From: an uncultured Gammaproteobacteria bacterium
GTDB lineage: Bacteria > Patescibacteriota > Patescibacteriia > JAHIZJ01
NCBI GenBank assembly: GCA_964371245.1
Contig: CAYJKP010000001.1
Location: 53,128-117,127, forward strand
Length of the DNA stretch: 64,000 bases
Direction: 5' to 3'
The notes below the pieces were generated by a model. That model searched no databases, was not told where the DNA came from, and was given only the letters and a program-made list of their open reading frames with translations. A program made the translations under genes and the position numbers. Positions 6,178 to 57,799 of the stretch are shown here, in pieces. Every line of letters starts with the position of its first letter. Positions within the stretch are counted from its first letter, which is position 1.

Positions 6178-6249
6178 CGAACGGAAAAGGCGGCGCGAGC
6201 CGTTTTTTGCGTATGTGAAAAGACTTCCGCGTTTCCGCAGAAGTCGGCG

Positions 6250-6887: not shown

Positions 6888-7832
6888 ATGACACCGCCCG
6901 GCGAATTAGCGAAATCAATCTTGTCTGAACTGGCGTATTTTGATATTTTTGAGCATCCGTTAACGCCGATCGAACTCTGGCGGTATGCCAGCCCACGGAC
7001 GGCTACTCTCGCCGAGGTTATCACCGAACTTGCGCAAAGCGATTGGTTACGCGAACGAATTGATCAGAAATGGGGTATGTATTTCCTGCGCGGCCGCGAT
7101 CATGTCGTCGAGCTCCGCATGGTTCGGTACCGCGAGTCTGAAGCAAAGTATTTGAAAGCGCTGCGTTTTGCCAATCGCCTGGCGACCTTTCCGTTCATTC
7201 GGATGATTGCCGTCTGCAACTCGTTGGCGTACAGCAATTCTCGCTCCGACGGGGACATTGATCTGTTTTTTATCGCTGCGCCCGGTCGGATCTGGACCAC
7301 CCGGTGGCACGTGACCGGCTATCTGAAAGTGTTGGGCGAACGACCGACACGCCAGGTGACGCGGGACAAGATTTGCGCCAGTTTCTTTATCGCGCCGGAA
7401 GCGTTTGATCTTCGAACCATGAAAATATCCCGGTCCGATATCTATCTGGCACATTGGGTCAAGCAACTTGTGCCGATTTACGATTCAGCTGATTGGTACG
7501 AAAAATTCATGGCGGCAAACGTCTGGGTGGAGGAGTATTTTCCGCACGGCTATCCAATCCAGCCAGCCCTGACGCGCCGCATCGCTTCGTCTCGCGCACG
7601 TGTGGCGATGCAAAAAACATTTGAAACCGTCTATCGAGGCGTGGTCGGTGATGCGTTTGAGAAAATGTATGAGCGGATCCAGCGCCGCCTGTTGCCGAAC
7701 GATCTTCGCCGCTTGGCCGGTCAAGACACGCGCGTGGTGATGACGCCGACGATGCTGAAATTTCACGAAAACGACCGGCGCGCCAGGTACCAAGAACGCT
7801 GGCTTGAGAAATGCAAGGAGTTGGGCGTATGA
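6888..7832 (+). CDS. hypothetical protein with minimal nucleotidyltransferase-fold motif
   Basis: SNSRSDGDIDLFFI fits the hG[GS]...D.D NTase signature. Overlaps the downstream ligase-like gene by 22 nt. Confidence 0.45.
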   Translation: MTPPGELAKSILSELAYFDIFEHPLTPIELWRYASPRTATLAEVITELAQSDWLRERIDQKWGMYFLRGRDHVVELRMVRYRESEAKYLKALRFANRLATFPFIRMIAVCNSLAYSNSRSDGDIDLFFIAAPGRIWTTRWHVTGYLKVLGERPTRQVTRDKICASFFIAPEAFDLRTMKISRSDIYLAHWVKQLVPIYDSADWYEKFMAANVWVEEYFPHGYPIQPALTRRIASSRARVAMQKTFETVYRGVVGDAFEKMYERIQRRLLPNDLRRLAGQDTRVVMTPTMLKFHENDRRARYQERWLEKCKELGV

Positions 7833-36322: not shown

Positions 36323-36844
36323 ATGGCATCTATGGGCGATCAAACAACCAATCGAAGCTGGAGAGACGATGGCCTTGTTATTCTCGTTTTGACCTTCTGT
36401 CTGGTGATGGTTGGTATTCAGCTGTTGCTCAGAGATGAGTCAGGGACGGCTGGAAATGTAACGACCGATTCGAACGGCATCCGATTTGAAAGCCTAGTAC
36501 GCGGCTGTAATAGCGACTCGGAAAAAATATCCCGAGAAGTGGGTTTAAACGTTCCCGAAAAAGAAGTCAGTCTAGAAATAGATCGAGCCGCTTTGATCTA
36601 TCGCCGCACGGTTAGCCACGCTTGTTGTCTGACGGTTACGTTGAAACACGAACAGGCGCAGAATGCTATTACCATCGATGAAAAATGGAGCGGAACACCA
36701 TGTCGCTGTCTTTGCACGACCCAGCTTCAAGCTTTATTCACCAATGTCCCGGCCGGGGCGTACACGGTTACCGCGGTTGAGCAAACACCCCAAGGTCAGA
36801 AAAACACGCTGCGACAGCAACAGGTCACTTTCGGGGACGATTGA
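36323..36844 (+). CDS. hypothetical membrane-anchored protein
   Basis: Start chosen after the upstream stop. One TM helix. Confidence 0.4.
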   Translation: MASMGDQTTNRSWRDDGLVILVLTFCLVMVGIQLLLRDESGTAGNVTTDSNGIRFESLVRGCNSDSEKISREVGLNVPEKEVSLEIDRAALIYRRTVSHACCLTVTLKHEQAQNAITIDEKWSGTPCRCLCTTQLQALFTNVPAGAYTVTAVEQTPQGQKNTLRQQQVTFGDD

Positions 36845-36941
36845 ACCGGCATTAAACCCTATACAAAAGAATATTTTTACGTTATGATATAAATGAAAGT
36901 AATCAGATATTTTTGTTTTTATCTAACAAAGTACCAACGAC

Positions 36942-37364
36942 ATGATTTTAAAAGAATGTCAATCGTGCCGCGGCTGTTGCGGGTCGGACGGATACGTCGA
37001 TATTCTGTTGACGCAGAACGATCTCGTCTATATTCCGAAACGGTTGGTGAAAAAAAGCAATTCCTTGTGGAAGTTCAAAAAAAGCCGGACCGGAGTCTGT
37101 TATTTTCTCACGGCCAAGGGCTGTTCGCTGGCTTATAAAAAAAGACCGTTGGACTGCCGTATTTATCCGCTAACCTTCGTTATAGAAAACAGTAAAATAC
37201 AGACGCGAATATTCCGCAGTTGTCCCTTGGCCGGAACAATATCAAAAGAAATTCTGGCTGAGATGAAAAAAGAATTAAGGCGCGGACTGAAGCAGTGGCA
37301 GCCGGAGGAAATCGTAGCATATGCCGGCAGTACAAATACCTGGGCTTGGTTAAAACCGGAATAA
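36942..37364 (+). CDS. YkgJ-family Cys-cluster (putative Fe-S/zinc) protein
   Basis: CQSCRGCCG N-terminal cluster plus downstream Cys residues, typical of UPF0153/YkgJ. Confidence 0.55.
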   Translation: MILKECQSCRGCCGSDGYVDILLTQNDLVYIPKRLVKKSNSLWKFKKSRTGVCYFLTAKGCSLAYKKRPLDCRIYPLTFVIENSKIQTRIFRSCPLAGTISKEILAEMKKELRRGLKQWQPEEIVAYAGSTNTWAWLKPE

Positions 37365-37369
37365 TATAA

Positions 37370-38488
37370 TTGCTAATCAAATCAAAGAATATGCGGAATA
37401 AAAAACGAGCAACCATTCAATCGAAATCGAGAATCAGGTCACTTAATCTAAAAAAACAACTAACGGTCAGCGAACTGGTTAATAATTATTATCAGGCCTA
37501 TAATTCGGCCCGGCTCAATGAAGCCTGCCGCTTGTTGGCTGAGAAAATGCTCGATCCGCGCCGCGACGTCACCGTGGGGCTGACGATTGCCGGCGCGCTG
37601 ACCCCGGCCGGATTATCAGGTGCAGTGGTTTCAATGATGCAGGCTGGTTTCATCGATTTTATCATTTCGACCGGGGCAAATCTATATCATGATATTCATC
37701 ATGCGCTTGACCTGCCTTTGACTAAAGGCGACTTCAAGGTTGATGACCGCGAATTGTTTAAGAAAGATGTCGTTCGCATCTACGATATTTTCTTGAAAGA
37801 AAAAATGCTGCTCGGCACGGATCAGTATTTCCGCAATTTTATCGAGAGCAGCAAGTGTCCGAAAAAGCATATGGCTTCCAGCGAATTTCATTATCGTATC
37901 GGGCGCCATTTACTGAAGCAATCGCCGAATCCGGAACGGTCGATTCTCGCCCAAGCCGCTCGTTTCAATGTTCCGGTCTACACGTCTTCGCCAGGTGATT
38001 CCAGCCTGGGCATGGAATTGGCGCGTTTTTCGCTGGATCAGCCGGGATTGATGATCGATCCGAATCTAGACGTTTTAGAAACCACGGCCATTGTCGCGTA
38101 TGCTAAGGAAAACGGCGTCATTCTGGTCGGCGGCGGCTCACCCAAGAATTTCTATATGCAGACCCAGCCGATGCTCTGGCAATTTTTGAACATGAGCCGC
38201 GGCGGCCACGATTATTTCATTCAGATGACAATGGACTCGCCGCAGTGGGGCGGTCTGTCCGGGGCCACGCCGGGCGAGGCCGTGTCCTGGGGCAAAATAA
38301 ACCCCGAGGAATTAAAAAACACGGTCGTGGTTTATTCAGACTTCACCCTGGCCCTGCCGATTTTATTCACCTATGCCTTTGACCAGGCCAAGCCGCGGAT
38401 CAGAAAAAACCTTTATCTGCATCGCGAGGAGCTGATGAAAAGAATGGAGAAAGAATATCGGAAAAAAAGAACAGTATCGTATCTATAG
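37370..38488 (+). CDS. deoxyhypusine synthase family protein
   Basis: LSGATPGEAVSWGKI matches the conserved DHS GSDSGARPDEAVSWGKI segment. NAD-binding STGANLYHD region. Confidence 0.7.
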   Translation: MLIKSKNMRNKKRATIQSKSRIRSLNLKKQLTVSELVNNYYQAYNSARLNEACRLLAEKMLDPRRDVTVGLTIAGALTPAGLSGAVVSMMQAGFIDFIISTGANLYHDIHHALDLPLTKGDFKVDDRELFKKDVVRIYDIFLKEKMLLGTDQYFRNFIESSKCPKKHMASSEFHYRIGRHLLKQSPNPERSILAQAARFNVPVYTSSPGDSSLGMELARFSLDQPGLMIDPNLDVLETTAIVAYAKENGVILVGGGSPKNFYMQTQPMLWQFLNMSRGGHDYFIQMTMDSPQWGGLSGATPGEAVSWGKINPEELKNTVVVYSDFTLALPILFTYAFDQAKPRIRKNLYLHREELMKRMEKEYRKKRTVSYL

Positions 38489-38504
38489 ACAATAATTTGT
38501 ATTT

Positions 38505-39815
38505 ATGTCAAACGGAAACGCTGCAACAAATCACGTTAAGTCCAGAAAGTTTCTTTTCGTGTCCTGGGAAAGCGTTAGCGGCGATTTAGCTTGGCAGGTC
38601 CAGAAGGAGGGCAATCAGGTGAAAGTTTCGATTGCCAGCAGGGAAGACGAAGATGTGTATGACGGCATTCTGGAAAAGGTTGAAAAGTGGGAGGATTATA
38701 TTGACTGGGCGGACGTGATTATTTTTGACGACATTGATTTCGGTCCGATTGCCGAACGATTAAGGAAAAAGGGTAAACTCGTGGTTGGCGGATCGGTTTA
38801 TACCGACCAGACCGAGAACGATCGTGAATTTGGTCAGAAGGAAATGGAGCGTTTGGGTATGAATGTATTGCCTCATTTTCATTTTGACAATTTTGATGAG
38901 GCAATAGGTTTTCTGAAGAAAAACCCCGGCCGATATGTCATGAAACCGAGCGGGAGCGCGCAAAACGAAAAAAACCTACTGTTTATCGGCGAGGAAGAAG
39001 ACGGCCGTGATTTAATCGAGCTGATCGAGCACAACAAGGTTTCTTGGACCAAGAAGATAAAAAATTTCCAGCTGCAGAAATTCGTCGCCGGCGTGGAAGT
39101 GGCCATCGGTTCGTTCTTCAACGGTCAGAATTTCATTCGCCCGATAAATATTAATTTCGAACACAAGAAGCTGTTTCCGGGCGACCGCGGCCCGTCGACC
39201 TGGGAGATGGGCACGCTCATGTACTGGACGAATACGAGCAAAATTTTTACCAGCACGCTGGCGAAAATGGAGGGAGCACTGGCCGAGAGTGGGTACATTG
39301 GCTACTACGATATTAATTGCATCGCCAACAGTCGCGGAATTTACCCCCTGGAAATTACCGCGCGATTTGGCTATCCCACAATCAGCGTGCAAATGGAAGG
39401 TATCCTCTCGCCGATGGGAGATTTTTTATATGATCTGGCGAGTGGAAAAAATTTCGAGATCAAAACAAAAAAGGGATTTCAAATAGGCTTCGTCGTAGCG
39501 GTGCCGCCGTATCCGTTCAGCAGCGACCGGATATTCTCTATTTACAAAGATTCGTCAATCCTGTTCAAGAATTCTAGTCAGGTTGACGGGTTGCATATCG
39601 GCGACGTGAAAAAAGTGAACGGCGATTTCAAGCTGGCCGGAAATACCGGTTATGCTCTGGTTGTGACTGGTTCAGGTATCACCGTGGAAGAAGCACGGAA
39701 ACAGGTTGAACATCGTTTAAGGAATATACGTTTGCAGGGCATGTTTTATCGAGTTGATATTGGGACGCGCTGGCTGAAGGATAGCGATAAGCTGCAGGCC
39801 TGGGAATACCTCTAG
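38505..39815 (+). CDS. PurD-like ATP-grasp protein (phosphoribosylamine-glycine ligase family)
   Basis: YVMKPSGSAQNEKNLLF (ATP-grasp) and EHKKLFPGDRGPSTWEMG, matching the PurD DHKRVGDKDTGPNTGGMG block. Confidence 0.6.
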   Translation: MSNGNAATNHVKSRKFLFVSWESVSGDLAWQVQKEGNQVKVSIASREDEDVYDGILEKVEKWEDYIDWADVIIFDDIDFGPIAERLRKKGKLVVGGSVYTDQTENDREFGQKEMERLGMNVLPHFHFDNFDEAIGFLKKNPGRYVMKPSGSAQNEKNLLFIGEEEDGRDLIELIEHNKVSWTKKIKNFQLQKFVAGVEVAIGSFFNGQNFIRPININFEHKKLFPGDRGPSTWEMGTLMYWTNTSKIFTSTLAKMEGALAESGYIGYYDINCIANSRGIYPLEITARFGYPTISVQMEGILSPMGDFLYDLASGKNFEIKTKKGFQIGFVVAVPPYPFSSDRIFSIYKDSSILFKNSSQVDGLHIGDVKKVNGDFKLAGNTGYALVVTGSGITVEEARKQVEHRLRNIRLQGMFYRVDIGTRWLKDSDKLQAWEYL

Positions 39816-40049
39816 CTGGATTCCCGCGCTTGACCGGAGGCCAAGAGAAAATTCGAGGCAGGAAATCCTAAATCAGAAACGATAACAATTGTTCAAAATT
39901 AAAATAACCGAAACCGTTTGGAATATTCGAACAAAAAAATTTTGATATTGTTTCAAATATAATGTTTTGAATTTCGGATTTTTTCCAACACGTGAAGGGC
40001 AGAAGCTATTGAGACGTTGTCGATAAAAGATCAAATTAAGCATACGTAA

Positions 40050-40934
40050 TTGAGAGTAACGAGAAATAATCTGTTTTATCTCCCGCCGGAGTATTCGGCC
40101 TGGCGAAATTCGAAGGTGATCGCGGTGCCTTTGGGTTTCGAGAAATCGGTAACCTTCGGAACGGGCACACGAACCGGTCCGGCGGCCATCGTGGCCGCTT
40201 CCCAGCAGGTCGAACTTTTTGACGAGGAACTCTGGCAGGAAACCCAGAAGAAAGTCGGCGTGGCCACGCTCCAGCCATTTCCGGCGGCCAAAAGCTATAA
40301 CGCCCTTGAGGAACAGATAGAAACGATCATACCGAAAATTTATGGCGAAAAAAAATTTCCTCTGATTTTGGGCGGCGAGCACAGCCTGACGCCTTTTATT
40401 ATCAAAAGCCTAATTCGATCAGGGCTGAAAGGTTTCAGTATTCTGCAGTTTGACGCACACGCCGATCTGCGCGACGGCTATCTCGGCCAAAAGTATTCCC
40501 ATGCTTCAGCTATGCGACGTTGCCTTGATTTCCCCGATGTCAATCTCGTTCAAATCGGTATCAGAAATATCAGCAATGAGAACGACGAATTAGTTTATTG
40601 GCGGAAGAATCAACGCCGCATCAAAACTTTTTGGGCAAAAGACAAAAAACGCTGGCTGATTAATAACCTTATAAAAGGCTTGAAAAAAAACGTCTATCTC
40701 ACCATTGACGTGGATGTTTTTGATTCATCTATTATGCCGTCGACTGGCACGCCTGAACCGGGCGGGCTTGATTGGTACGAGGTTTTGGATGTTTTACGCC
40801 CGATTTGCCGGCAGCGAAATATCATCGGCGCTGATGTCGTTGAGCTGGCGCCAATCAAGGGATTGGTCGCGCCCGATTTTCTAGTTGCCAAATTGATATA
40901 TAAAATGATCGGGTATATTTCCCGACACGCATAA
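40050..40934 (+). CDS. agmatinase/arginase-family ureohydrolase
   Basis: Mn-binding motifs GGEHS, DAHAD, DVDVFD and STGTPEPGG. Confidence 0.85.
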   Translation: MRVTRNNLFYLPPEYSAWRNSKVIAVPLGFEKSVTFGTGTRTGPAAIVAASQQVELFDEELWQETQKKVGVATLQPFPAAKSYNALEEQIETIIPKIYGEKKFPLILGGEHSLTPFIIKSLIRSGLKGFSILQFDAHADLRDGYLGQKYSHASAMRRCLDFPDVNLVQIGIRNISNENDELVYWRKNQRRIKTFWAKDKKRWLINNLIKGLKKNVYLTIDVDVFDSSIMPSTGTPEPGGLDWYEVLDVLRPICRQRNIIGADVVELAPIKGLVAPDFLVAKLIYKMIGYISRHA

Positions 40935-40938
40935 CGGC

Positions 40939-41330
40939 GTGAGAATGAACTTATTAACGAACGTTTTACAAAGACTTCCTTTATTGGTTTTATTCCTAAT
41001 CAGCGCCGGGTTCATCATCATTGGTGATTATTTTGCCAAATATTGGTCATTGCACCGGCGAAATATTTATCTCGCGCCGACGCTTTTTGTGTTATGTGAT
41101 ATCTGGTTTTTTATCCGCCCTCTTTTTAAAAGACGGTTTTACCGTTACGGCCTTGATTTGGGTTGTTTAATGTAATTGGCTTTATCCTGATCGGCCTAAT
41201 CATTTTAGGGAAACGCTCACCAGCGGTGAAATTATTGGTGCTGTATTAGGCGTTGTTTCTCTGATTATTCTTAGCCTGAAAAAAATAAACCAGGCCGTTT
41301 TCAATAAAGATCAGGAAGCGTGGTATAATA
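40939..41330 (+). pseudogene. possible disrupted small multidrug resistance (SMR)-like membrane protein
   Basis: Hydrophobic helix-encoding segments resembling SMR helices continue in shifted frames after the 78-aa ORF (GFILIGLIILG..., LGVVSLIILSLKK). Confidence 0.25.
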
Positions 41331-41356
41331 ACTTCGTTAACATTACCTAGGCTAAT

Positions 41357-42187
41357 ATGTATCTTCTCTTCGATATCGGAGCCACCAACCTTCGCCTCGC
41401 CGTTTCGAGTGATGGGAAAAAGCTGGAACATTGTTGTAGCATTCCAACGCCACAAAATTTTCGCGATGGCCTCGAGATACTGAAAGATATGACAAACAAA
41501 CTTACCCATGGCCAGAAGATAAAGGCTGTCGCCGGTGGTACCCACGGCATGCTAAATAAAAATAAAACCAGCATCGTCAGCTGCCCGCATTTGCCCGGTT
41601 GGATCGGGAAACCGTTAGTACCGGCATTGCGGCAGATGTGGCACTGTCCCGTCTCACTTGAAAATGACGCGAATCTTGCCGGTCTCGGGGAAGCGACCTA
41701 TGGCGCCGGCCGTCGCTACCCAATTGTCGCTTTTTTAACGATCAGTACGGGTGTTGGCGGTACGCGCATCTATAATAAACGTTTTGAGGCGAATGCCATC
41801 GGTTTCGAGCCTGGCCAGCAAATTATAAACGCGGATCGTCCAGCTTTTCTGCCGAACCAGTCCGGCCGTCTCGAAGGGTATATATCAGGCACGGCGCTGG
41901 GGAGGAAGCATGGCCGAACGTCAAATAAAATTACCAATCAGAAGGTCTGGCGGGAATTTGAACAATACCTCGGCTATGGCCTGGTAAATGTCGTGCGTTT
42001 TTGGTCGCCGCATGTTATAGTGTTGGGAGGCGGCGTGATGGAAAATCGGCATATTTCGTGCCAACGGTTGAATAACAACCTGCGTCGTATGTTGCCAAAG
42101 ATTCCGATTTTGCCGCGTGTTGTCCGCGGTAGGCTGGGGCAACGGGCGGGGTTGTACGGCGCCGTAGCCTGGCTCGCCCAAAGATAA
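41357..42187 (+). CDS. ROK-family sugar kinase / regulator
   Basis: LFDIGATNLRLAV N-terminal ATPase motif, LENDANLAGLGE and ISTGVGG. Confidence 0.7.
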   Translation: MYLLFDIGATNLRLAVSSDGKKLEHCCSIPTPQNFRDGLEILKDMTNKLTHGQKIKAVAGGTHGMLNKNKTSIVSCPHLPGWIGKPLVPALRQMWHCPVSLENDANLAGLGEATYGAGRRYPIVAFLTISTGVGGTRIYNKRFEANAIGFEPGQQIINADRPAFLPNQSGRLEGYISGTALGRKHGRTSNKITNQKVWREFEQYLGYGLVNVVRFWSPHVIVLGGGVMENRHISCQRLNNNLRRMLPKIPILPRVVRGRLGQRAGLYGAVAWLAQR

Positions 42188-46027: not shown

Positions 46028-49000
46028 ATGAATAAGCCTATAAAGCTTGGTCTCGCTCTCCTTCTTGGTGCAGCGTTTTTTATTTTGCATAGTAATACCG
46101 CCAGCGCCGAAGATGTAGTCTTACATGGTCGTGAGGCGCAATTGCCGCTCTCAACGTCTGGAAAGGTGGTTGTGAAATATAATGAGCAACTCGTGAAACT
46201 AGCGGAAGAAAGCGGTCAGTATCAGGCTTCGGTCATGGCCGGGGTGCATGCCCTTACCGAAGACGCATTACACGAAGACCAAAACCTTGGCGTTTTTTCG
46301 ATCCGTGACGGCAAAACCATTGCTTCAAAAATTGAAGAATTGCAGCACAACCCACTCGTCGATTACGCCGAGCCGGAATACCTATATTATCCCGAAAGCA
46401 CGACGCCAAATGATTCATACTATTCTCTTCTTTGGGGTTTGAATAACACTGGCCAAACAGTCAACGGCACGAGCGGCACGGCTGATGCTGATATTGACGC
46501 GGCCGAAGCCTGGGATATTGCACGAAACGCGAGCGATACCATCGTGGCGGTCATTGATACGGGCGTCAACCTCAGTCATCCCGAACTATCGGCCAGCATT
46601 GTTCAGGGCTATGATTTTGTTGACGATGATACCTCACCGTATGACGTCGGCGGTCATGGCACGCACGTGGCCGGTACAATCGCCGCGCGTGGGAATAACA
46701 GCGACGGCGTTACCGGTGTTTCCTGGAGCGCGAAAATTATGCCGATCCGCGTCCTCGGCATCGGGGGCGGCACGAACTCGGATATTGCCGACGGTATCCG
46801 CTACGCCGTCGATCATGGAGCAAAAGTACTGAACATGAGTTTGGGCGGGACCGGCTATAGCCAAGTGTTGTATGACGCAATTGATTACGCGAAGACACAC
46901 GACGTGTTAGCCGTGGTCGCCGCCGGAAACGACGGTCGGAACAATGACGGCGGTACCCACACCTATCCCTGCGATTATGACCTCGACAATATTATCTGCG
47001 TCGCAGCAACAACGCAAACTGACGCCCTGGCCAGTTTTTCCAATTACGGTACAACCTCGGTCGACGTGGCGGCGCCGGGTACAAACATCATGAGCACCTA
47101 TCCCGAGCCGGCGCTGATCGAATATTTTGATAATGCCTCGCACGCGACGATGTACGGGTACGATTTCACCGGTACGGACTTTACGGTCAGCGGCGATTCC
47201 GCGCCACAGGGCTGGATCGTCACCGACGTCTCGGGAGACAAATGGGCGCAGGCGTGGTATGGCGGGCCGTACAATAATGTTGATACGTACATTACGTCGA
47301 CGAGCATCAGTCTCAGCGGAGAGCATTCAATTCTCTTGAAATTCACCTACGATTTTTTAACAGAAAGTTCACCCACGGAGGCGTGCGAATACGATTATCT
47401 CGGGATCGACGTGTACAACGGTTCCAGCTGGACGACAGTCGATAAATTATGCAATTATTTCGGTGATCCGTGGGGCGGCGGCGAGGCGTTGGATGTCGCT
47501 GAATATGATCTGTCGGCGTATGCGGCGAGTGCGACCAAGGTCCGATTTCATTGGCACACGGATGCGACGGGCGGCAGTGCAGGCTTTTTTATCAATAATG
47601 TCTTTGTTTATAAAACCGGCGAAAGCTACACCTATCTCAATGGAACTTCAATGGCCACGCCGCACGTCGCCGGTCTGGCCACCTTGCTCCGGGGGTACAA
47701 GCCGAGCGCGAGTTATTCGCTGGTCAAAGAGGCGATAACCGATTCGGTCGACGCAAAGAGCTCACTGAGCGGAAAAATAGTGACCGGCGGCCGGATCAAC
47801 GCCTATGCCGCTGTGTCCTCGCTCGACGGAACGCCACCGACGACGTCGCTGTCGCGCAATCCCAGCGGTCCGAATGGCGACAACGGGTATTATGTGACCG
47901 TTCCCTCAATCACGCTGCGCGCCACCGATTCCGGCTCGGGAGTGGCGAAAACATATTATAAATGGGACAGCGGCACATATTCCGAGTATCACGGCTCAAT
48001 TCCGGCGCCGGAAGGGGTTCATGTGCTCAAATATTATTCAACTGATTTGGCGGGAAATCGCGAAACGACCAAGAATAAAAAATTCAGGGTCGACACCCAT
48101 CACCCGCGGATAGAATTTACCCGTTCACTGTATCGAAACACGACCCTTTCCGCCCAGCGGACAATATCCGGAACGGGCAAGGATGGCGGCTCTCGGCTGA
48201 AGTATGTCATGATGAACGGCACGCTGCTGCCACTGAGCAAAGGGGTATTTAGCACGGCTGTAACCCTGAAGGATGGTTTAAATAAATATACGTTCGTCGC
48301 GAAAGACAACGCTGGCAATAAAACCACAGTGATTAAGTATGCGTATTACCGAAACGGACGCGTGCTCGGCACGGCCGCACCCGTCGAACGTATCATCACA
48401 ACCGCTCATCCCGGTCGTCCTCCTCAGGTCAGGATTTTTGACAAAAAAGGGACGTTGAAAAATCAATGGTTTGCCTACGGGCAAGATTTCAAGACGGGCG
48501 TAAGCTTGGCCACCGGCGACGTGAACAACGACGGTCAAGCCGAGGTGATCGTCGGTCCGGCCGGCGTTGACGCGTCGCTCGTAAAAGTGTTTACCCAGAA
48601 AGGTACCCTTCTAAAACAGTGGTATGCCTATCCGGCTGAGTGGCAGATTGGCGCCACCGTGGCAACAGGCGACGTCAACGGCGACGGGACAATCGAAATC
48701 ATTGTTCTCCCGGCCGTAAAAAAACCGGCCCAAGTAAAAGTATTTACGTATTCAGGCAGGCTCAAATATCAATTCTTTGCTGACACGGCGCCCACCTTGC
48801 TGAATCTGGCCGTCGGCGACGTCAACGGCGATTGGAAAGACGAAATCATTGTTTCAGCGACAGCCGGCTCCGGACCTGAGGTGCGCGTTTATACCTACAA
48901 AGGGAAATTGGCTTATCGCTTCAATGCCTATGCCCCGGGTTTCCGCGGCGGCGTTGAAATTGCAGCCGGTGATGTAAATAACGATAAAAAAGACGAGATT

Positions 49001-49270
49001 ATTACGGGCGTCATGGGTGCTGGCACCAGCCAGGTTCGGGTTTTTAAAAGGGATGGTACGGCCATAAACCAATTTTTTGCCTATGACCTGAGTTACCGTG
49101 ACGGCGTGACGATGGCCTCGGCCGACATCAATGGTGACGGCAAAGATGAAATAATCACTGGGACGGCGCCGGGGCAATCAGGCATTGTTAGGACGTTTAA
49201 GAAAGACGGTTCGCGCGTAAGCCAATTTTTCGCCTTTCCAAAGGAATGGCCGATCGGCGTGAAACTATAA
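46028..49270 (+). CDS. secreted subtilisin-like (S8) serine protease with C-terminal FG-GAP repeat beta-propeller
   Basis: Signal peptide. I9-like propeptide. Catalytic triad motifs AVIDTGV, HGTHVAGT and GTSMATPHVAG. Five or more GDVN(G/N)DG..EII FG-GAP repeats. Confidence 0.85.
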   Translation: MNKPIKLGLALLLGAAFFILHSNTASAEDVVLHGREAQLPLSTSGKVVVKYNEQLVKLAEESGQYQASVMAGVHALTEDALHEDQNLGVFSIRDGKTIASKIEELQHNPLVDYAEPEYLYYPESTTPNDSYYSLLWGLNNTGQTVNGTSGTADADIDAAEAWDIARNASDTIVAVIDTGVNLSHPELSASIVQGYDFVDDDTSPYDVGGHGTHVAGTIAARGNNSDGVTGVSWSAKIMPIRVLGIGGGTNSDIADGIRYAVDHGAKVLNMSLGGTGYSQVLYDAIDYAKTHDVLAVVAAGNDGRNNDGGTHTYPCDYDLDNIICVAATTQTDALASFSNYGTTSVDVAAPGTNIMSTYPEPALIEYFDNASHATMYGYDFTGTDFTVSGDSAPQGWIVTDVSGDKWAQAWYGGPYNNVDTYITSTSISLSGEHSILLKFTYDFLTESSPTEACEYDYLGIDVYNGSSWTTVDKLCNYFGDPWGGGEALDVAEYDLSAYAASATKVRFHWHTDATGGSAGFFINNVFVYKTGESYTYLNGTSMATPHVAGLATLLRGYKPSASYSLVKEAITDSVDAKSSLSGKIVTGGRINAYAAVSSLDGTPPTTSLSRNPSGPNGDNGYYVTVPSITLRATDSGSGVAKTYYKWDSGTYSEYHGSIPAPEGVHVLKYYSTDLAGNRETTKNKKFRVDTHHPRIEFTRSLYRNTTLSAQRTISGTGKDGGSRLKYVMMNGTLLPLSKGVFSTAVTLKDGLNKYTFVAKDNAGNKTTVIKYAYYRNGRVLGTAAPVERIITTAHPGRPPQVRIFDKKGTLKNQWFAYGQDFKTGVSLATGDVNNDGQAEVIVGPAGVDASLVKVFTQKGTLLKQWYAYPAEWQIGATVATGDVNGDGTIEIIVLPAVKKPAQVKVFTYSGRLKYQFFADTAPTLLNLAVGDVNGDWKDEIIVSATAGSGPEVRVYTYKGKLAYRFNAYAPGFRGGVEIAAGDVNNDKKDEIITGVMGAGTSQVRVFKRDGTAINQFFAYDLSYRDGVTMASADINGDGKDEIITGTAPGQSGIVRTFKKDGSRVSQFFAFPKEWPIGVKL

Positions 49271-50051: not shown

Positions 50052-51935
50052 ATGAAGACAAAACGAATAATAATTATTGCCACATCATTCATTATCGGTC
50101 TGCTTGTGGTTTCCGGAGCAGCCGTTTATTTTTTTCTCTGGCAGCCAAAAGTAACATTGGTTTCGCCGGCGGACGAGGCGACTCAGGTTGCGCTTGACGC
50201 AACGATTCTCATCCGGTTTGATAAACCAATCAATCGCCGCGCGCTCGTTCCGAGATTGACACCGGATTTGGACGGCGAGTGGAGTTATGAATCGCCGCTG
50301 GCTGGCCGTCAAATGTATCAAGCCATTCGGTTTGTGCCCAACCGCGTTTTTGAGCCGAGCACCCGGTACACTGTGGCCCTGGAAGGAATTACTGACCTGG
50401 CGCAGTACGCGCAGCCAAAAACCTATACCATTACCTTTATCACCCAAGAATTGCCAACAGTCTCAAGCGTGGCGCCAGCTGACGGCTCAACGACAGTGTC
50501 ACCGCAGACGAACATCGAAATCGCCTTGACTGGAGCGAATCACGACTATGCCGAGTTTGAGGTTGTTTTCGATCCAGCGATTGCCTACACGCCGCGGCAA
50601 AACGAGACACTGGATCGATATACGATTATTCCTGATACCAAGTTCAACCAGGGTGCAACCTATACACTGACCATCAACCGTTCGTTTGTTGTCCGGGATC
50701 GACAAACGCAGGTCATTACCTATCGAGGCGAGCCCGAAAAAATGTATCAGGGAACTTTTACGATCGCGCCGCCGCCGCGGGCTGAAAAAGTATATCCGAC
50801 CGGCGAACAGGTATTCACTGACGAAAAACCGACGCTAATGTTTACCGAACCGATGGATAGCGCTAGTTTAAATGAACATTTCATCGTCACGCCCGTTATC
50901 GCCGGGGAGCTCTCATTGTCTGATGATCAATCGACCGCCACCTTCACGCCCGCCGTCGCGTTGACTTTTGATACCGACTATCGCATAACAGTCACCGCTG
51001 GCGCCGAAAATGCGAATGGGGGATTTTTACCGGAAGACGTTACCTACACGTTTCATACCATCGGCCCGGTCGAGGCGACGCACCATGCACCGTCGGACGG
51101 AGCCACCGGCGTAGCGATCGGCAGCAGCATCGCGGTATCGTTTAATCAGGCGGTTGATCGCGCCTCAGCTGAAAAGGCGTTCATTACCGAACCGGCGATC
51201 TACGGATCATTTACCTGGAACGATCAAACCATGACGTTCAAACCAAACAACGCGCTGTTGTTTGATACAACCTATCAGGTTCGGCTCACCAGCGGCATTC
51301 AAAGCATTCGTGGCCAAAATTCCCGGGCAACCTACGGTTTCACATTCGCAACAGCGCCGTCGACCGTGAAGCTCAACGTTGCCATCGACTTACAAGACCA
51401 CGCTTTATCATGTGAAGCCGCCGCGCTGAAAATGGCCCTGGCAAATAAAGGCGTGCGCGTGTCAGAAAACGATATTATGAACTATGTCGGATTCGATCCG
51501 ACGCCACACAAGGGCTCAACCTGGGGCGATGCCTATCGCGCATACGTCGGCGACATCAACGGCCGGCAAAATACTACCGGTTATGGCGTCTATTGGGATC
51601 CGATCGCGCAAGCGGCCAATCATTGGCGCCCAAGCCAAGCCTTCACTGGTTGGACCGCGAGCCAGGTCGCTGAGGAAATTGACAGCGGAAATGCCGTTGT
51701 GATCTGGGGAGTGTACGGCCGGGGCTATGAAGATTCATGGTACACGCCGACGGGAAAATACATCTATGCTTGGAAAGGCGAGCATGCCCGAACGGTCATC
51801 GGTTTTATTGGGAGCGTCGACAATCCGATCAAGTTTATCATCAATGATCCCTATGCCGGTCAGATAACCTGGACGAAAGCGCAACTTGAAAGCAACTGGG
51901 GAATATTTGGCAATGCTGGAGTAGTCGTGCGGTAG
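50052..51935 (+). CDS. secreted protein with SbsA-type Ig-like repeats and C-terminal peptidase C39-like domain
   Basis: Signal/anchor. Four or more repeats of the P.DG.T.V.....I...F...M type. C-terminus has Cys (HALSCEAAALKMAL) and downstream His/Asp, resembling YvpB/C39_2. Confidence 0.5.
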   Translation: MKTKRIIIIATSFIIGLLVVSGAAVYFFLWQPKVTLVSPADEATQVALDATILIRFDKPINRRALVPRLTPDLDGEWSYESPLAGRQMYQAIRFVPNRVFEPSTRYTVALEGITDLAQYAQPKTYTITFITQELPTVSSVAPADGSTTVSPQTNIEIALTGANHDYAEFEVVFDPAIAYTPRQNETLDRYTIIPDTKFNQGATYTLTINRSFVVRDRQTQVITYRGEPEKMYQGTFTIAPPPRAEKVYPTGEQVFTDEKPTLMFTEPMDSASLNEHFIVTPVIAGELSLSDDQSTATFTPAVALTFDTDYRITVTAGAENANGGFLPEDVTYTFHTIGPVEATHHAPSDGATGVAIGSSIAVSFNQAVDRASAEKAFITEPAIYGSFTWNDQTMTFKPNNALLFDTTYQVRLTSGIQSIRGQNSRATYGFTFATAPSTVKLNVAIDLQDHALSCEAAALKMALANKGVRVSENDIMNYVGFDPTPHKGSTWGDAYRAYVGDINGRQNTTGYGVYWDPIAQAANHWRPSQAFTGWTASQVAEEIDSGNAVVIWGVYGRGYEDSWYTPTGKYIYAWKGEHARTVIGFIGSVDNPIKFIINDPYAGQITWTKAQLESNWGIFGNAGVVVR

Positions 51936-52255: not shown

Positions 52256-55200
52256 ATGAACTCAGTAAAAAATTCCAGTCAAAAAACCGGGAAATTTTTA
52301 CGCGCCCAGAAAAAAGTAAAAGGTCCGGCGTCGTCTTCTCGAACCTTGCGAAAAACACAGGGTGGATTTGCCCTACTCGGAAAGCAATTTTTACCCATTA
52401 TTATTGTTCTCATTATAGCCGTCCTGGCTGCGGCTGTACTGCTCTATCGCCAGTCCAGCCAGTCAAACTATGCCGGCATTACTCGACCGGAGCTGACCGG
52501 ACAATTCGGATTGAAGGCGGTTAAGACCGATTCGGCCGGGATTGAGCCAACCACTACCTTTTTGTTAAGCTCGAATCGATCACTCTCAGCCGATGTTATC
52601 GAAGAATTGGTTACTTTTTCGCCGGAAGTGAAATATAAAGTCCGCAAACTGAAGGAAGAATCTTCTTTTAACGGTTTTTTGAGCAAAGTATTCGCCCAAG
52701 AGCCCAATACGAACAACACGAATGGGGAATCAGCCGTTAGCTCATATGAATTAAAGCCTGTCACGGCGCTCCACGAAGACACGAACTATCAAGTAACCAT
52801 TGCAAAAACAAAGTACTCGGACCGGGAATATCAGTGGGCTTTTCCGGTAAAGGCAAAGTTCCAGGTTCTGGAATCGCATCCTCGGCACCAGGCGACCTAT
52901 GTGCCGACAAATTCTACCGTTGAGATCACGATGAATCGAGAGAAATTTATCACCCCGGAAAAACATTTCTCACTCTCCCCGAATGTTGAGGGTACGCTCG
53001 AGCAGCACGGCAACCGGCTTGTTTTTTTGAGCAACCAACTGGCTGAAAAAACAGTTTATACCGCAACGCTAAAAAAGGGATTGAAGGTTGAGGGCAGTGA
53101 TGAAGAATTAACGCAAGACTATACCTTCAGTTTTGAGACAAGCGAATCGACGTATTCGTCGGGCCGAGCTCAATTTCGATTTAATTCGGACTTCCTGGAA
53201 TTTCTGCCGGACAAACAACCCTATTTCAGCGTCTACTATTATAATTTTGAACCCAAGGATCTCCAGGCAAATTTATACCGCTTTGATAAAGCCGATCAGT
53301 TTATATCCGCCTACCAAAACAGCCGCAACTGGAATCTCCGCTGGACGCATTTCACCTGGGAGGGAGCGGGCAGCCAATATGAGCCGGATCCCGATCAGCT
53401 GATGCTTACGTTTCCAGTCAATATTGTCCAGGTTGATTATCAGAAATTTTTTGAGGTGCCCCAAAAACTTGACCCGGGCTATTATCTCATCGATCTCCAG
53501 GCGGCTGACCAGCGTCACCAAGTCTGGTTGCAAATCACCCCAGTCTCACATTATTTTTCGGTCACGCACGAAAACAGTCTTGTCTGGCTGGCTGACTTTC
53601 CAAGTAAAGAGCCAACGCAGAATACCCAGATAACCTTTGTTGATCAGGCTGGTGAAGACGTAAAACTTGGCAAAACTGACTCGAATGGCCTGATCCAATT
53701 TGCCACACCAACGAGCCTAACCCAGTCCGTCATCGCTTCCCCGACGCCAAAATTTATCAAAGCCGCAACCGAGGACCAGCCGCTCTATATCCGGGTAAGC
53801 GACAAATACGGCTATCGCTCGACAGCGGCCGAGGGTGATCCGTACTGGGACTACTTGTCACTTGATCGCTATGTCTATCAGATGACGGATACGGTTCGGT
53901 TTTGGGGCGTTGTCCAAGGGCGGACCGAGGACATGCGCGAGAAAAAGGTGACGGCGGCAATTACGAGCGGGTATTATTATTACAATGAAGACGGATCGCA
54001 ATCGGATTTGCCGGTTCTGCAAAGCAAAGAGGTCGTTGTCTCGCCGTTTAACACGATTGAAGGCGATCTCTCGTTTACCGGATTAACGCCTGGAACGTAC
54101 AACGTCATGGTTCGTGACGGCGAGCGAACAATTTCCTCGGCGACCTTTGAAGTCATGACCTATATCAAGCCGGCCTATCAAATCACCGTGACGCCATCGA
54201 AACAGGCTATTTTTGCAGGCGAGCCGATCGACTTCGCGGTCCAGGCGAAGTTCTACGACGGTACGCCGGTACCGAATATCGCGCTGAAATATTACAGCTG
54301 GTGGAACGATGCCGTCCAAGGCGAGCTGAAATTGGACAGCGACGGCGAAGGTACGTTTACGTACACGCCAGCCTATACCGAGAGCGACTATCAATACTAT
54401 CCACGATACTTCGAAATGACGTTTTCGCCGTCCTTGGCTGAGGAAGGGGAGATTTCCGGCGCGGGCGGCGTCCTCGTTTTCGGACCGCATATGTCGCTTG
54501 AAACGAAATCAACCTACACCGGCGATCATAACTATCTCTTTACTGCGAAACTGAATTCGATCGTGTTGAAAGACTTGCCGACCAGTAATAATGGTAATTC
54601 CGATTCGTATTCCTTGTTGTCCGAATACATTGGCGAGCCTGTGCCGGACCACGTTCTTAACGCAAAAGTAGTAAAAACAACCATTCAAAAGATCGAGGAC
54701 GGGACATACTATGACCCGATCAATCGAGTCAACCAGAAGAAATATCGGTATGAATCGAAAGACGATATCATTGAGGAGCTGCAGGGGAAGACTGACGCAA
54801 ACGGCGAGTGGAGTTTTACCAGAGAATATCCCTATCAGGAGCTTGTTGGTTACCGAGTTGAATGTACGGGTCAGGATCAAGAGGGTCGGAACTTCAAATC
54901 CACCCAGTACATGTATTCTGGCGAAGGGTATATTCCGGGCAAGGAATTTAATGCGATACTCAGCCTGAACAACAATAACGGGACGACCCAATATTCAGTC
55001 GACGACCCGGTCAAACCTGAAGTACGCATTACCCTGGGACAATTGCCTGAAAAGTCGAAAATACTTTATTATCGTCGCCAAAACCAGATCGACAAAACCT
55101 GGGTGACGTCGGATCTAACGCTGGAAGAGAATTTTTCCCAGCAGTTTGTTCCCTCTGTTACGTATCGGGCAGTAATGCTCGGTCCGACTGGTTTTGTGGA

Positions 55201-57799
55201 AACGGGTGACGAGACGGCAGCATTTAAGAAAACCGACCGAGCGCTGTCAATAGAAATAAATCCGGATAAAACCGGCTATCGACCGGGTGAAAAAGTTACT
55301 CTGAACGTAGCCGTAACCGATAAAGACAAGAAGCCGGTTGCGGCCCAGGTCAATCTGGCCGCTGTTGACGAGGCGCTCTTCCACGTCGTGCCGTATTCTT
55401 GGCAACCAAAGATTCTCGACAGCCTCTACCGGAACGTAACCGTGTGGCCGCTTTCCGGCGCATCTGATTACGCCTTATTGGAGCAGGGGGCTGAACGCGG
55501 CGGCTGTTTCGGGGCGGATACCGCCATCCTCATGGCTGATAAAAAGACCAAGCCGATCCAAGATATCAAAGTGGGCGATACCGTTCTCGCTTCAGCGGGC
55601 GATGGCACAACTGTCGTGAAACCAGCCGTCGTTCAAGGGACGTCCGTTCACCTGGTGAATACGTTCCTCGTCATTAACGGCTCGCTCGTCGTCACGCCGG
55701 AACACCCACTCTTTGCGAATGATCGCTGGCAGCCGGCTGGAAACCTGAAAACAGGCGATGTCTTATTGGGCAGCGATGGAAAAGCCAAGCCGATTGAGTC
55801 AGTCGTGACGACGACGGATCGCTCAATCCCGGTCTATAATCTCGTTGTCGGCACGTATCATACCTATTTTGCCAATGGCCTCCTGGCTCATAATGCCGAA
55901 AAGGCCGGTGGCCCACGTTCCAACTTTGTCGATGTTGCGCTCTATCAGACCATTGAAACCAACATGAGCGGCCAAGGTTCAGCTACCTTTACCGCACCCG
56001 ACAATCTTACCTCCTGGCGGGTCACTGCCCTGGCGTACGACCCTGATCTGATTCTGGCTGGCCAAACGGCCAAGCTCGTGCCAGTCGCACTGCCGCTGTT
56101 CGTCGACAGTACCTTGAACTCATTCTATCGGACAAATGACAAACCGATTGTTCGAGTACGCGCCTTTGGCAACGATTATCAGGTCGGTCAGGCGACGGAT
56201 TTCGCTCTAACCAGCACCTCGCTCAACCTCAATCTCGCCAAAACCTCGACTGACCGGGAAGTACGTTTTGATCTCGGCGCAATCCCGGCCGGTGACCATG
56301 ATATTACGGTTGGCGTAAAGCAAGGTCAGGCTCAGGATTCCGTAAAACGTCAACTCCAGGTAATCGATAATCACTTCCGGATCGTTCAAGCCAAAGAATA
56401 CGCCGTCACCAATGACCTGAAAGACATCGAAGGGAACACCCAGGCCTACACCCACCTGGTATTTGCCGACGCCGGCCGTGGCAAATATTTTCAGCCACTC
56501 CTTGAGCTCAGTTACGAAACGGGCGTTCGCTCGGATCAAACGGCGGCTGCGTACACGGCGAATGCGTTGCTCGAAAAATATTTCAAATACCCGGCGCCCG
56601 AGCCGCTTGATCTCTCCGGGTTTCAGGTCCAGGATACCGGCGCTTTAGCGCTCTTTCCGTATAGCGATAGCGATTTAGAAGTCTCGGCAAAACTCGCTGA
56701 TTTGGCTCGAGCCAACGTGCCCGAAGCCGAGCTGAACCGGTATTTCACAACCTCTCTCTCGGACGATAAAGCCGATCTCAATCGGATTAGTAAGGCACTC
56801 TATGGCTTGGCGAGTCTGGGCGAGCCGGTTCTCGCGAAGATCCAAACCGTGCTTCAGCAATCAGAGTTATCAGTGGAAGACCGTCTCTATCTGGCCATCG
56901 GTTTGATCAGGCTGGGCGATCAGGAAGGGGCGAGACTCGTGTATCAAGATGCCATTCGAATAAATCTCCGTTTTGAAGGGGGCGAGGCGTGGCTGGAAAG
57001 CGAGAGCGATCTGACGCGTCGAGTAAAACTCACCGGTTTATCGGGCATTCTCGCGGCTGAGTTAAAATTAACGGATGACGCCAACGCACTCTGGAGCTAC
57101 CTGTCTGGTCACTACCCAGAAACCGATCTTGACGGTATCGAGCGCGCCTTGATGATCCGGGCGCTCCTGGTCATGGCCGATCCGTCGGCAGCCAGTTTTA
57201 CCTACGATACCGGTAGCCGAAAGGAAACCGTCAAATTAGAGAACGGCGCTACATACGCGCTTGATTTGGCGGCTGTGGAATTGACTGCTCTCCGTTTCAG
57301 CGATGTCACAGGCAATATCGTGCTGGTCAGCTGGTTTGAGCGGAGTAAGAATCCGGAGGAACTCCCCCGCAACCCCGATCTCGTTTTGACTCGAAAGTAC
57401 CTCGTGAATGATAAGCCGACGACGACGTTTGCTGAGGGGGATATTGTTAAGGTTCGCCTCGATCCGAATATTGGCGCGAACGCCATCGACGGCTTGTACC
57501 AGGTGACGGATTATCTGCCGAGTGGCTTGCGACCAATCACTCAACTGTATAATCGAAATTTATCGTCTGGTACGGAATGCGATCCGATCTGGTACCCGTC
57601 CATGATCATGAACCAGAGCGTGTATTTCACCATCGGAAAGGACTTTGATCGCACCCCTGACTGCACAAACCGAACGCTCAACTATTACGCCCGGGTTGTT
57701 AGCCCCGGCGGATACTCGGCCGAACCGGCAGTCATCCAGTCGCTCAAGAATCTCACGAGCTTAAACTTAACCGACGCACATAATATTACGATTAAGTAG
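52256..57799 (+). CDS. giant alpha-2-macroglobulin-family protein (thioester-less) with embedded Hint domain
   Basis: 1847 aa with an N-terminal TM anchor. RSNFVDVALYQ...TAPDNLTSW matches the A2M-domain start (RxYFPETWxW...VPDxITxW). No CGEQ motif seen. Confidence 0.7.
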   Translation: MNSVKNSSQKTGKFLRAQKKVKGPASSSRTLRKTQGGFALLGKQFLPIIIVLIIAVLAAAVLLYRQSSQSNYAGITRPELTGQFGLKAVKTDSAGIEPTTTFLLSSNRSLSADVIEELVTFSPEVKYKVRKLKEESSFNGFLSKVFAQEPNTNNTNGESAVSSYELKPVTALHEDTNYQVTIAKTKYSDREYQWAFPVKAKFQVLESHPRHQATYVPTNSTVEITMNREKFITPEKHFSLSPNVEGTLEQHGNRLVFLSNQLAEKTVYTATLKKGLKVEGSDEELTQDYTFSFETSESTYSSGRAQFRFNSDFLEFLPDKQPYFSVYYYNFEPKDLQANLYRFDKADQFISAYQNSRNWNLRWTHFTWEGAGSQYEPDPDQLMLTFPVNIVQVDYQKFFEVPQKLDPGYYLIDLQAADQRHQVWLQITPVSHYFSVTHENSLVWLADFPSKEPTQNTQITFVDQAGEDVKLGKTDSNGLIQFATPTSLTQSVIASPTPKFIKAATEDQPLYIRVSDKYGYRSTAAEGDPYWDYLSLDRYVYQMTDTVRFWGVVQGRTEDMREKKVTAAITSGYYYYNEDGSQSDLPVLQSKEVVVSPFNTIEGDLSFTGLTPGTYNVMVRDGERTISSATFEVMTYIKPAYQITVTPSKQAIFAGEPIDFAVQAKFYDGTPVPNIALKYYSWWNDAVQGELKLDSDGEGTFTYTPAYTESDYQYYPRYFEMTFSPSLAEEGEISGAGGVLVFGPHMSLETKSTYTGDHNYLFTAKLNSIVLKDLPTSNNGNSDSYSLLSEYIGEPVPDHVLNAKVVKTTIQKIEDGTYYDPINRVNQKKYRYESKDDIIEELQGKTDANGEWSFTREYPYQELVGYRVECTGQDQEGRNFKSTQYMYSGEGYIPGKEFNAILSLNNNNGTTQYSVDDPVKPEVRITLGQLPEKSKILYYRRQNQIDKTWVTSDLTLEENFSQQFVPSVTYRAVMLGPTGFVETGDETAAFKKTDRALSIEINPDKTGYRPGEKVTLNVAVTDKDKKPVAAQVNLAAVDEALFHVVPYSWQPKILDSLYRNVTVWPLSGASDYALLEQGAERGGCFGADTAILMADKKTKPIQDIKVGDTVLASAGDGTTVVKPAVVQGTSVHLVNTFLVINGSLVVTPEHPLFANDRWQPAGNLKTGDVLLGSDGKAKPIESVVTTTDRSIPVYNLVVGTYHTYFANGLLAHNAEKAGGPRSNFVDVALYQTIETNMSGQGSATFTAPDNLTSWRVTALAYDPDLILAGQTAKLVPVALPLFVDSTLNSFYRTNDKPIVRVRAFGNDYQVGQATDFALTSTSLNLNLAKTSTDREVRFDLGAIPAGDHDITVGVKQGQAQDSVKRQLQVIDNHFRIVQAKEYAVTNDLKDIEGNTQAYTHLVFADAGRGKYFQPLLELSYETGVRSDQTAAAYTANALLEKYFKYPAPEPLDLSGFQVQDTGALALFPYSDSDLEVSAKLADLARANVPEAELNRYFTTSLSDDKADLNRISKALYGLASLGEPVLAKIQTVLQQSELSVEDRLYLAIGLIRLGDQEGARLVYQDAIRINLRFEGGEAWLESESDLTRRVKLTGLSGILAAELKLTDDANALWSYLSGHYPETDLDGIERALMIRALLVMADPSAASFTYDTGSRKETVKLENGATYALDLAAVELTALRFSDVTGNIVLVSWFERSKNPEELPRNPDLVLTRKYLVNDKPTTTFAEGDIVKVRLDPNIGANAIDGLYQVTDYLPSGLRPITQLYNRNLSSGTECDPIWYPSMIMNQSVYFTIGKDFDRTPDCTNRTLNYYARVVSPGGYSAEPAVIQSLKNLTSLNLTDAHNITIK
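55505..55894 (+). other. Hint / bacterial intein-like (BIL) domain inside the A2M-family CDS
   Basis: In-frame 130-aa segment CFGADTAIL...VVTPEHPLF (TxxH block B)...VYNLVVGTYHTYFANGLLAHN (blocks F/G ending His-Asn). The +1 residue is Ala. Confidence 0.7.

Follow-up and report, generated by a model that had tools for sequence, protein, structure and literature searches.

Bacterial homologues of deoxyhypusine synthase (DHS) of the SpeY type have recently been placed in an agmatine-dependent route to homospermidine. In a 2026 Journal of Biological Chemistry paper, every bacterial SpeY tested joins two agmatines to form N1,N9-bis(guanidino)homospermidine (G44G), and homospermidine forms from SpeY only if a ureohydrolase is present (PMC13625781). 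Two SpeY-associated "agmatinases," from Caldilinea and Winogradskyella, were assayed in vitro and cleave G44G with no detectable activity on agmatine, a substrate for which a canonical agmatinase would compete with SpeY; the same paper notes that eukaryotic DHS is able to form homospermidine from spermidine and putrescine (PMC13625781). A second described arrangement places a homospermidine synthase beside an amide ligase, with hss clustered with gss in beta-proteobacteria and in phage Motura (PMC9992855). Here we describe a locus in a 64-kb stretch of contig CAYJKP010000001.1 (hereafter the window), from a genome of the Parcubacteria type within the candidate phyla radiation (CPR). It is a co-directional four-gene block that encodes, in order, a CxxCxxCC protein, a SpeY-type DHS homologue, an ATP-grasp ligase resembling the purine enzyme PurD, and an arginase-family ureohydrolase.

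On balance, we read this locus as an agmatine-dependent homospermidine block with a non-PurD amine-carboxylate ligase set between its two enzymes. In the mechanism that we propose, SpeY would join two agmatines to give G44G, and the ureohydrolase would strip two ureas from G44G to leave sym-homospermidine, with the agmatine either taken up or made by an arginine decarboxylase (ADC) whose gene lies elsewhere in the genome. The ligase, presumably inserted between speY and the ureohydrolase gene in this lineage, would use an amino acid or some other acid to amidate an operon amine (agmatine or homospermidine), and a peptidase (M29 in relatives) would reverse the amide bond. The polyamine half of this proposal is already known biology, and it is the "PurD" that is the interesting part. 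The elements of the block are:

36942..37364, + strand: small Cys-rich CxxCxxCC protein (PF03692), 140 aa; Pfam 32.7 bits against a cutoff of 23
37391..38488, + strand: SpeY-type DHS homologue, predicted diagmatine/G44G synthase; Pfam DS, NCBIfam NF001980
38505..39815, + strand: PurD-like ATP-grasp ligase, 436 aa, of a distinct CPR/DPANN family; Pfam GARS_A and GARS_C
39816..40049, no strand: AT-rich intergenic spacer from ligase to ureohydrolase; 234 bp, 35% GC
40050..40934, + strand: arginase-family ureohydrolase, 294 aa, predicted G44G/diagmatine ureohydrolase; Pfam Arginase, TIGR01230

An earlier note on this DNA had picked out the DHS-like, PurD-like ATP-grasp, and agmatinase-like trio with its AT-rich spacer, and all three open reading frames (ORFs) are present on the + strand, together with every peptide block that it quoted; their family assignments lie well outside the range of chance. 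It had also suggested that the PurD-like gene does not act in purine synthesis, and the ligase itself bears this out. The protein, in which EHKKLFPGDRGPSTWEMG lies, scores 100.1 bits on TIGR00877 (purD) against a cutoff of 288; Pfam GARS_A and GARS_C match with ~39 bits each, and there is no Pfam match to GARS_N (PF02844). PurDs in the PDB align to it from residue 82 onward only, with E values of 1e-21 or weaker. An AlphaFold model (pLDDT 80) has the complete PurD-like N-B-A-C four-domain fold, and the top 15 Foldseek matches to this model in the PDB are all PurD (TM 0.67 to 0.74, 17 to 21% identity, E values to 3e-26), followed by biotin carboxylases. As references for alignment with family members we used three real PurDs that came out of contaminated "phage" records (a Pseudomonas "phage" record was left out of the reference set because its reading frame was wrong); the ligase is 19 to 23% identical to these, and a neighbour-joining tree puts the real PurDs in a clade of their own, separate from the ligase family and its 30 to 48% identical relatives, which lack the three PurD motifs.

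Those motifs are where the difference lies. Across the ligase family the GGREHA of PurD is replaced by ES(V/L)SGD, ARFGDPE by ARFG(Y/F)PT, and the C-domain GGR by GY; in the numbering of human glycinamide ribonucleotide (GAR) synthetase (GARS), Arg13 becomes Val/Leu, Glu14 becomes Ser, Asp295 becomes Tyr/Phe, Glu297 becomes Thr, and Arg385 becomes Tyr. Both alignments also show the stretch that follows the GPE motif (PL(I/V)xG in PurD) to be ~5 to 7 residues shorter. All five human residues have been proposed to serve the phosphate or ribose of phosphoribosylamine (PRA), as general base, or in glycine recognition (Welin et al., PMC2978367), and the glycine ligands of Aquifex PurD are Asp212, Arg287, and Glu292 (PMC8880213). 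Kept in the ligase are Arg292 (of ARFG), the B-loop Lys, and Lys219 of the DHK motif, here EHK, with Asp217 conservatively changed to Glu. Because the proposed glycine and PRA residues are replaced while the ATP and acyl-phosphate machinery is kept, we infer a different substrate pair, and not a purine enzyme. Judged by its sequence, the protein is almost certainly not a GAR synthetase, and ATP binding with acyl-phosphate chemistry is plausible. Aromatic or neutral residues stand where PurD has basic ones, and the N-domain loops have gained acidic residues (SGD, FDD); these swaps may mean that an anionic co-substrate has been exchanged for a cationic one. Residues 414 to 436 form a conserved C-terminal tail (...DSDKLQxWGYL) that is absent from PurD, is modelled with low AlphaFold confidence, and is recognizable even in the Halorussus and phage relatives described below; it could be a docking or dimerization motif.

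The earlier note had remarked that no other purine-biosynthesis genes are present nearby, and we found none anywhere in the 64-kb window in Pfam scans that took in a further ~50 ORFs, almost all of them 150 aa or longer; the scans instead gave TruD, UvrA, GroEL, a PEP-utilising enzyme, DnaG, RpoD, iPGM, FabH, and surface proteins. De novo purine synthesis is generally reported to be missing from CPR bacteria and DPANN archaea.

The "PurD" of these organisms is a misannotated and exceptionally conserved PurD-derived ligase family, common to CPR bacteria, DPANN archaea, and phages. More than 6,000 clusters at 90% identity match it, it is present in at least 593 species-level genomes, and homologues are 57 to 78% identical over the CPR bacteria and DPANN archaea; at 50% clustering the family core reduces to one full-length representative (P0241, 61% identity). 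These homologues are publicly annotated as "phosphoribosylamine--glycine ligase," and in the literature on PurD or DHS in CPR bacteria, Patescibacteria, or DPANN archaea we found no description of either the family or the operon. A paralogue in the haloarchaeon Halorussus (P0246, 45% identity) falls within the non-PurD clade, and its neighbourhood (L098) offers no functional clue. Several alleles are long (P0242, P0243, P0244, P0247, P0262, and P0280; 750 to 1,120 aa), and in these the match is interrupted at about query residue 235, close to TGEMG, or at 286, immediately ahead of the Arg of ARFGYPT. P0242 bears a LAGLIDADG domain, so its insertion is taken to be an intein, and as a group the insertions look like inteins placed at the two most conserved active-site motifs of the ligase. 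More distant relatives (22 to 52% identity) are encoded on 41 IMG/VR contigs (L099 to L139), with a further phage relative in L094 (MW202796.1). In the recurring contig groups they lie among head-tail adaptor or portal genes and tail-fibre genes, and in one case (P0310) a ligase relative is fused between a phage portal domain and a Mu-F domain, an arrangement that suggests a virion-associated or packaged ATP-grasp enzyme.

What ties the ligase to polyamines is its gene neighbourhood, and this link is real but partial. We compared 80 species-level ligase loci (L001 to L080; about half from CPR bacteria and half from DPANN archaea, with ligases 57 to 70% identical), and approached the question from the other side with nine look-ups of DHS and ATP-grasp homologues; these gave six informative SpeY loci, and a seventh came from a metagenome scan with the DHS protein, which yielded two short loci only. 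The loci with the most similar SpeY, L086 (75 to 77% identity) and L083 (71%), share the gene order CxxCxxCC, SpeY, M29/NicX peptidase, ATP-grasp, arginase. The flanks of L083 are unlike those of the window, with MurB, HPF, and ADC upstream and SecA downstream, and the window gave no match to any of these four genes by tblastn or Pfam; the sequence of L086 ends too soon to reveal its flanks. Spacing is tight in all three, with the ligase gene no more than 16 bp from its upstream neighbour (in the window, 16 bp separate the DHS stop from the ATP-grasp start).

Beyond these, close relatives of the ligase (72 to 78% identity) adjoin non-homologous polyamine modules, namely ADC with SpeY and arginase, ADC alone, or SpeD with SpeE. 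Three loci with ligases 72 to 73% identical to that of the window illustrate this: L095 has ADC, LPG_synthase_C, and ATP-grasp; L096 has ADC, M29, and ATP-grasp; and L097 has SpeD, SpeE, SpeD, SET, and ATP-grasp. Archaeal-type DHS and arginase genes lie beside the ATP-grasp gene in L002, L004, L017, and the archaeal locus L036; in the first three, all from CPR bacteria, the best model for the DHS is NF002006, at 277 to 403 bits against a cutoff of 434. A saccharopine-dehydrogenase-like neighbour (c19, four loci) was considered as a further polyamine link and set aside, since the sole NCBIfam model that it hits, carboxynorspermidine synthase, gives 57.6 bits against 800. In Parcubacteria, the interval from murB/hpf to secA is a variable region (L083 to L088, L095 to L097, L008, and L048) that collects ADC, SpeY, arginase, SpeD/SpeE, the PurD-like ligase, an ECF S-component with TM1506, Amidohydro_2, and NUDIX genes; in L084 it also holds LarB/LarC/LarE-like genes.

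The other genes that accompany the ligase give some indication of its chemistry. After SET-domain genes, which are considered below, its commonest neighbours are LPG_synthase_C/FemAB-like acyltransferases, a class-I methyltransferase, and M20-like, DUF1749, and M29 peptidases; these amide-bond hydrolases and aminoacyl-transferase-like genes fit an aminoacyl- or acyl-amine conjugate cycle. Our best guess is that the ligase would attach an acid to one of the operon's amines and that the peptidase would undo the bond, in the manner of glutathionylspermidine synthetase/amidase, and an amidated polyamine, which the earlier note had offered as one possible product, is a reasonable guess of the same kind. 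We picture an amine-carboxylate ligase that in general serves some purpose other than polyamine synthesis; here, co-transcribed with the homospermidine genes, it may well use their products. That it acts on a polyamine or on agmatine at all is a tentative suggestion. Similarly speculative is the broader idea that the CPR/DPANN "PurD" joins a cationic amine (agmatine, homospermidine, or an SET-methylated lysine-type amine) to a carboxylate, giving a new conjugate or modification.

Several observations weigh against the reading that we favour, and many also speak for a rival in which the ligase has nothing to do with the polyamine genes, works with its usual SET-domain partner on another amine (a protein lysine or a different macromolecule, for example), and merely hitch-hikes in the speY operon because both modules occupy the hpf-secA interval, an explanation that we consider a serious possibility without preferring it. 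The trio named in the earlier note does recur as a syntenic group in L083 and L086, but this does not extend far: the ATP-grasp gene is absent from five of the seven informative SpeY loci (L081, L084, L085, L087, and L088), and a polyamine gene lies within 6 kb of the ligase in only 6 to 8 of the 80 ligase loci (immediately adjacent in 4), leaving 72 to 74 without one. The commonest ligase neighbours are instead SET-domain genes, found at 20 of the 80 loci, and there is one natural fusion of ATP-grasp with a minimal SET domain (P0330, 578 aa), the C-terminal 133 aa of which match the commonest neighbour gene, a SET protein of ~140 aa (E value 5e-13). Because unrelated genes (LarB/LarC-like, NUDIX, ECF, and TM1506) are found in the shared MurB-HPF...SecA interval too, adjacency of ligase and polyamine genes may be no more than inherited synteny. 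Very slow change over two domains of life, together with inteins, is typical of macromolecule-partnered proteins, and the phage relatives sit amid portal, adaptor, and tail-fibre genes, one of them fused to portal and Mu-F domains; neither a polyamine gene nor a SET gene adjoins these relatives in the recurring IMG/VR contig groups. Within the window, the 234-bp spacer parts the ligase from the ureohydrolase, and there is no tblastn match in the 64 kb to an arginine decarboxylase, with the pyruvoyl ADC of L083 as query.

Hitch-hiking does not, however, readily explain why the CxxCxxCC-SpeY-ATP-grasp-arginase block is kept while the flanks differ between the window and L083, nor why, in the window as in L083 and L086, the ligase gene is interleaved between speY and the arginase gene and follows so closely on the gene upstream. 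Moreover, the adjacency recurs with non-homologous polyamine modules and in the archaeal locus L036, and no SET gene was found in the 64-kb window. On balance, we retain the homospermidine block with an embedded amine-carboxylate ligase as the preferred reading of this locus.

The evidence for the homospermidine half is firmer. The DHS homologue scores 255.7 bits on Pfam DS and passes the NCBIfam model NF001980, "homospermidine biosynthesis protein" (467.9 against a cutoff of 450), but it lies below all canonical DHS cutoffs (250.5 against 434, 224.5 against 304, and 221.4 against 364) and also fails the Thermus-type model NF002699. Its segment GATPGEAVSWGKI carries the catalytic lysine of the (E/D)xVSWGK motif and aligns with GAPPREGVSWGKI of PDB 7cmc, and the top PDB match is an archaeal DHS (E value 1.6e-30). 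An arginase-family gene, its partner in the cluster, lies 1.5 kb downstream on the same strand. The product of that gene scores 195 bits on Pfam Arginase and 193.2 on the TIGR01230 agmatinase model (cutoff, 174.3), and its translation contains the Mn-ligand motifs GGEHS, DAHAD, and DVDVFD, as the earlier note had reported. Its nearest PDB relatives are agmatinases and a guanidinobutyrase, and it is 60 to 73% identical to the arginases of L083, L086, L088, and L089.

The proposal that the DHS and agmatinase homologues form a homospermidine module therefore stands, as both the NF001980 and TIGR01230 cutoffs are passed, and the predicted proteins make it quite likely that SpeY and the ureohydrolase produce homospermidine via G44G. 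In CPR relatives the core operon comprises a pyruvoyl ADC (PvlArgDC), SpeY, and arginase, between MurB/HPF and SecA (L084, L085, L087, and L088); ADC is directly upstream of SpeY in these four and in L083, and the arginase gene adjoins SpeY in L081, L084, L085, and L087. The pair in the window is thus an ordinary member of a recently characterized pathway, in a CPR host with no local ADC. A Portnoybacteria locus shows a variation on this theme (L088, positions 5986 to 9125; also L089), with the order ADC, DS1, arginase, DS2, ECF, TM1506; in L088 the two paralogues flank a single arginase gene, DS2 being 60% and DS1 ~30% identical to the SpeY of the window.

What has been superseded is the chemistry that the earlier note attached to the module, in which putrescine comes from a true agmatinase and is condensed by the DHS homologue, alone or together with spermidine, to homospermidine. 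The ureohydrolase does pass a model named for agmatinase, and the eukaryotic enzyme has a precedent for a condensation of this type (PMC13625781). Nevertheless, all tested bacterial SpeYs, with no CPR enzyme among them, give G44G, and homospermidine only with the ureohydrolase, and the SpeY-associated ureohydrolases are inactive on agmatine (PMC13625781); a canonical agmatinase would also starve SpeY of its substrate. Because SpeY uses agmatine and its partner ureohydrolases cleave G44G, supply of putrescine by an agmatinase is probably the wrong description of this locus, and we consider the putrescine route improbable. The specificity of the window's ureohydrolase for G44G over agmatine is itself suggested by the SpeY context, by analogy with the assayed enzymes.

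Still less probable is the suggestion that the DHS homologue installs a hypusine-like mark on an EF-P-like translation factor, which the ATP-grasp protein and the ureohydrolase would then elaborate. The catalytic SWGK lysine is kept, archaeal-type DHS adjoins ATP-grasp in other CPR loci, and a haloarchaeal agmatine-based deoxyhypusine route with an agmatinase homologue may exist (PMC5178350). Against this, the DHS homologue is a SpeY-type paralogue, passing the SpeY-type equivalog and failing the canonical DHS models (224.5 against 304 and 250.5 against 434 bits), its orthologues occur in ADC-SpeY-arginase operons typical of free polyamine synthesis, and no EF-P gene is seen beside it; hypusine-like modification, another of the note's options, is thus very unlikely. 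Finally, that the ATP-grasp protein is a genuine divergent GAR synthetase, a relic of a partial purine pathway or in the service of one, is scarcely credible, since its predicted PurD-like four-domain fold and its public annotation are outweighed by 100 rather than 288 bits on the purD model, the replacement of five proposed substrate-contact residues, a clade apart from PurD that includes Halorussus P0246, and 64 kb with no pur genes.

Some further features of the locus and window deserve mention. If read from the TTG at 37370, the DHS-like ORF extends from 37370 to 38488; the alternative ATG at 37391 is the likelier start because a 100%-identical database protein (P0121) is 365 aa long. The closest named homologues of both the DHS and the ATP-grasp proteins are from Patescibacteria (Nealsonbacteria, Portnoybacteria, and the Parcubacteria group). 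The spacer at 39816 to 40049 has a GC content of 35% overall and 29% in its core, with 47 to 49% in the flanking genes; in L083 and L086, unlike the window, the ligase and arginase genes abut with a gap of no more than 13 bp. An Rfam scan of 36500 to 41500 gave zero matches, so a riboswitch (of the guanidine type, for example) ahead of the ureohydrolase is not supported, and promoter and terminator scans of the spacer region gave signals no higher than in shuffled sequence. The CxxCxxCC protein has homologues (38 to 42% identity) directly upstream of SpeY in L083 and L086. The FliB lysine methylase has an Fe-S Cys motif that has been described as resembling the Pfam CxxCxxCC motif (PMC8598068); as a motif resemblance is all that is documented, a FliB-type methylase is kept as a lead only. 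None of the four block proteins has a PHROGs family.

Downstream of the block, on the + strand, the window encodes a large secreted subtilase with C-terminal FG-GAP repeats (46028 to 49270) and a large secreted Big_5-repeat protein with a C39-like peptidase domain (50052 to 51935), both typical of CPR surface or host-interaction repertoires. These are followed at 52256 to 57799 (+) by a 1,847-aa alpha-2-macroglobulin-like protein (bMG3, A2M_BRD, A2M, and bMG10), into which a Hint/intein-type domain is inserted at approximately residues 1080 to 1213.

These findings have consequences for how such genomes are interpreted. Annotations credit CPR bacteria and DPANN archaea with PurD, and metabolic reconstructions should be corrected accordingly, in that this protein is not to be assumed to be a GAR synthetase; it is one of the most conserved uncharacterized enzymes common to the two groups. 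The newly described agmatine-dependent homospermidine route would be extended to CPR bacteria. If the proposed ligase activity is also correct, ultra-small symbionts and their phages would have a new polyamine conjugate of their own, or else a macromolecular modification linked through a polyamine or lysine.

Among characterized enzymes, PurD (EC 6.3.4.13; TIGR00877) is closest to the ligase, sharing the N-B-A-C architecture (best structural match, TM ~0.72 at 18 to 20% identity), the ATP-site lysines, the DHK-type motif in its EHK form, and the ARFG arginine. The ligase differs in its added C-terminal DSDKLQxWGYL tail and shortened post-GPE segment, and in being found where other pur genes are missing, in genomes as well as in the window. 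Glutathionylspermidine synthetase/amidase offers an analogous, not homologous, logic of ligase plus peptidase. As in the hss-gss clusters, the gene for an enzyme that forms homospermidine lies with one for an ATP-dependent amide ligase, here predicted from sequence, and genes for amide hydrolases (M29, M20-like, and DUF1749) lie near the ligase in relatives; unlike glutathionylspermidine synthetase, to which it has no homology, the window ligase is matched in Pfam only by GARS_A and GARS_C. Canonical archaeal or eukaryotic DHS (TIGR00321, NF002006) has in common with the SpeY-type protein its fold, NAD-dependent aminobutyl-transfer chemistry, and SWGK lysine, whereas the window protein is under the DHS cutoffs, above the SpeY-type cutoff, and in the context of a free-polyamine operon. 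A further close system is the SpeY/diagmatine ureohydrolase (DUH) pathway of Thermus thermophilus, Anabaena, Caldilinea, and Winogradskyella (PMC13625781), where, as in the window, genes for a DHS homologue and an arginase-family protein lie in one operon, and published SpeY clusters draw on three ADC folds, among them the pyruvoyl type of the window's relatives. The text of that paper does not mention ATP-grasp or PurD (PMC13625781). The window departs from the published pathway in that its host is a CPR bacterium, from a group outside those tested, and in that its block is without ADC and has an ATP-grasp ligase and a CxxCxxCC protein embedded in it.

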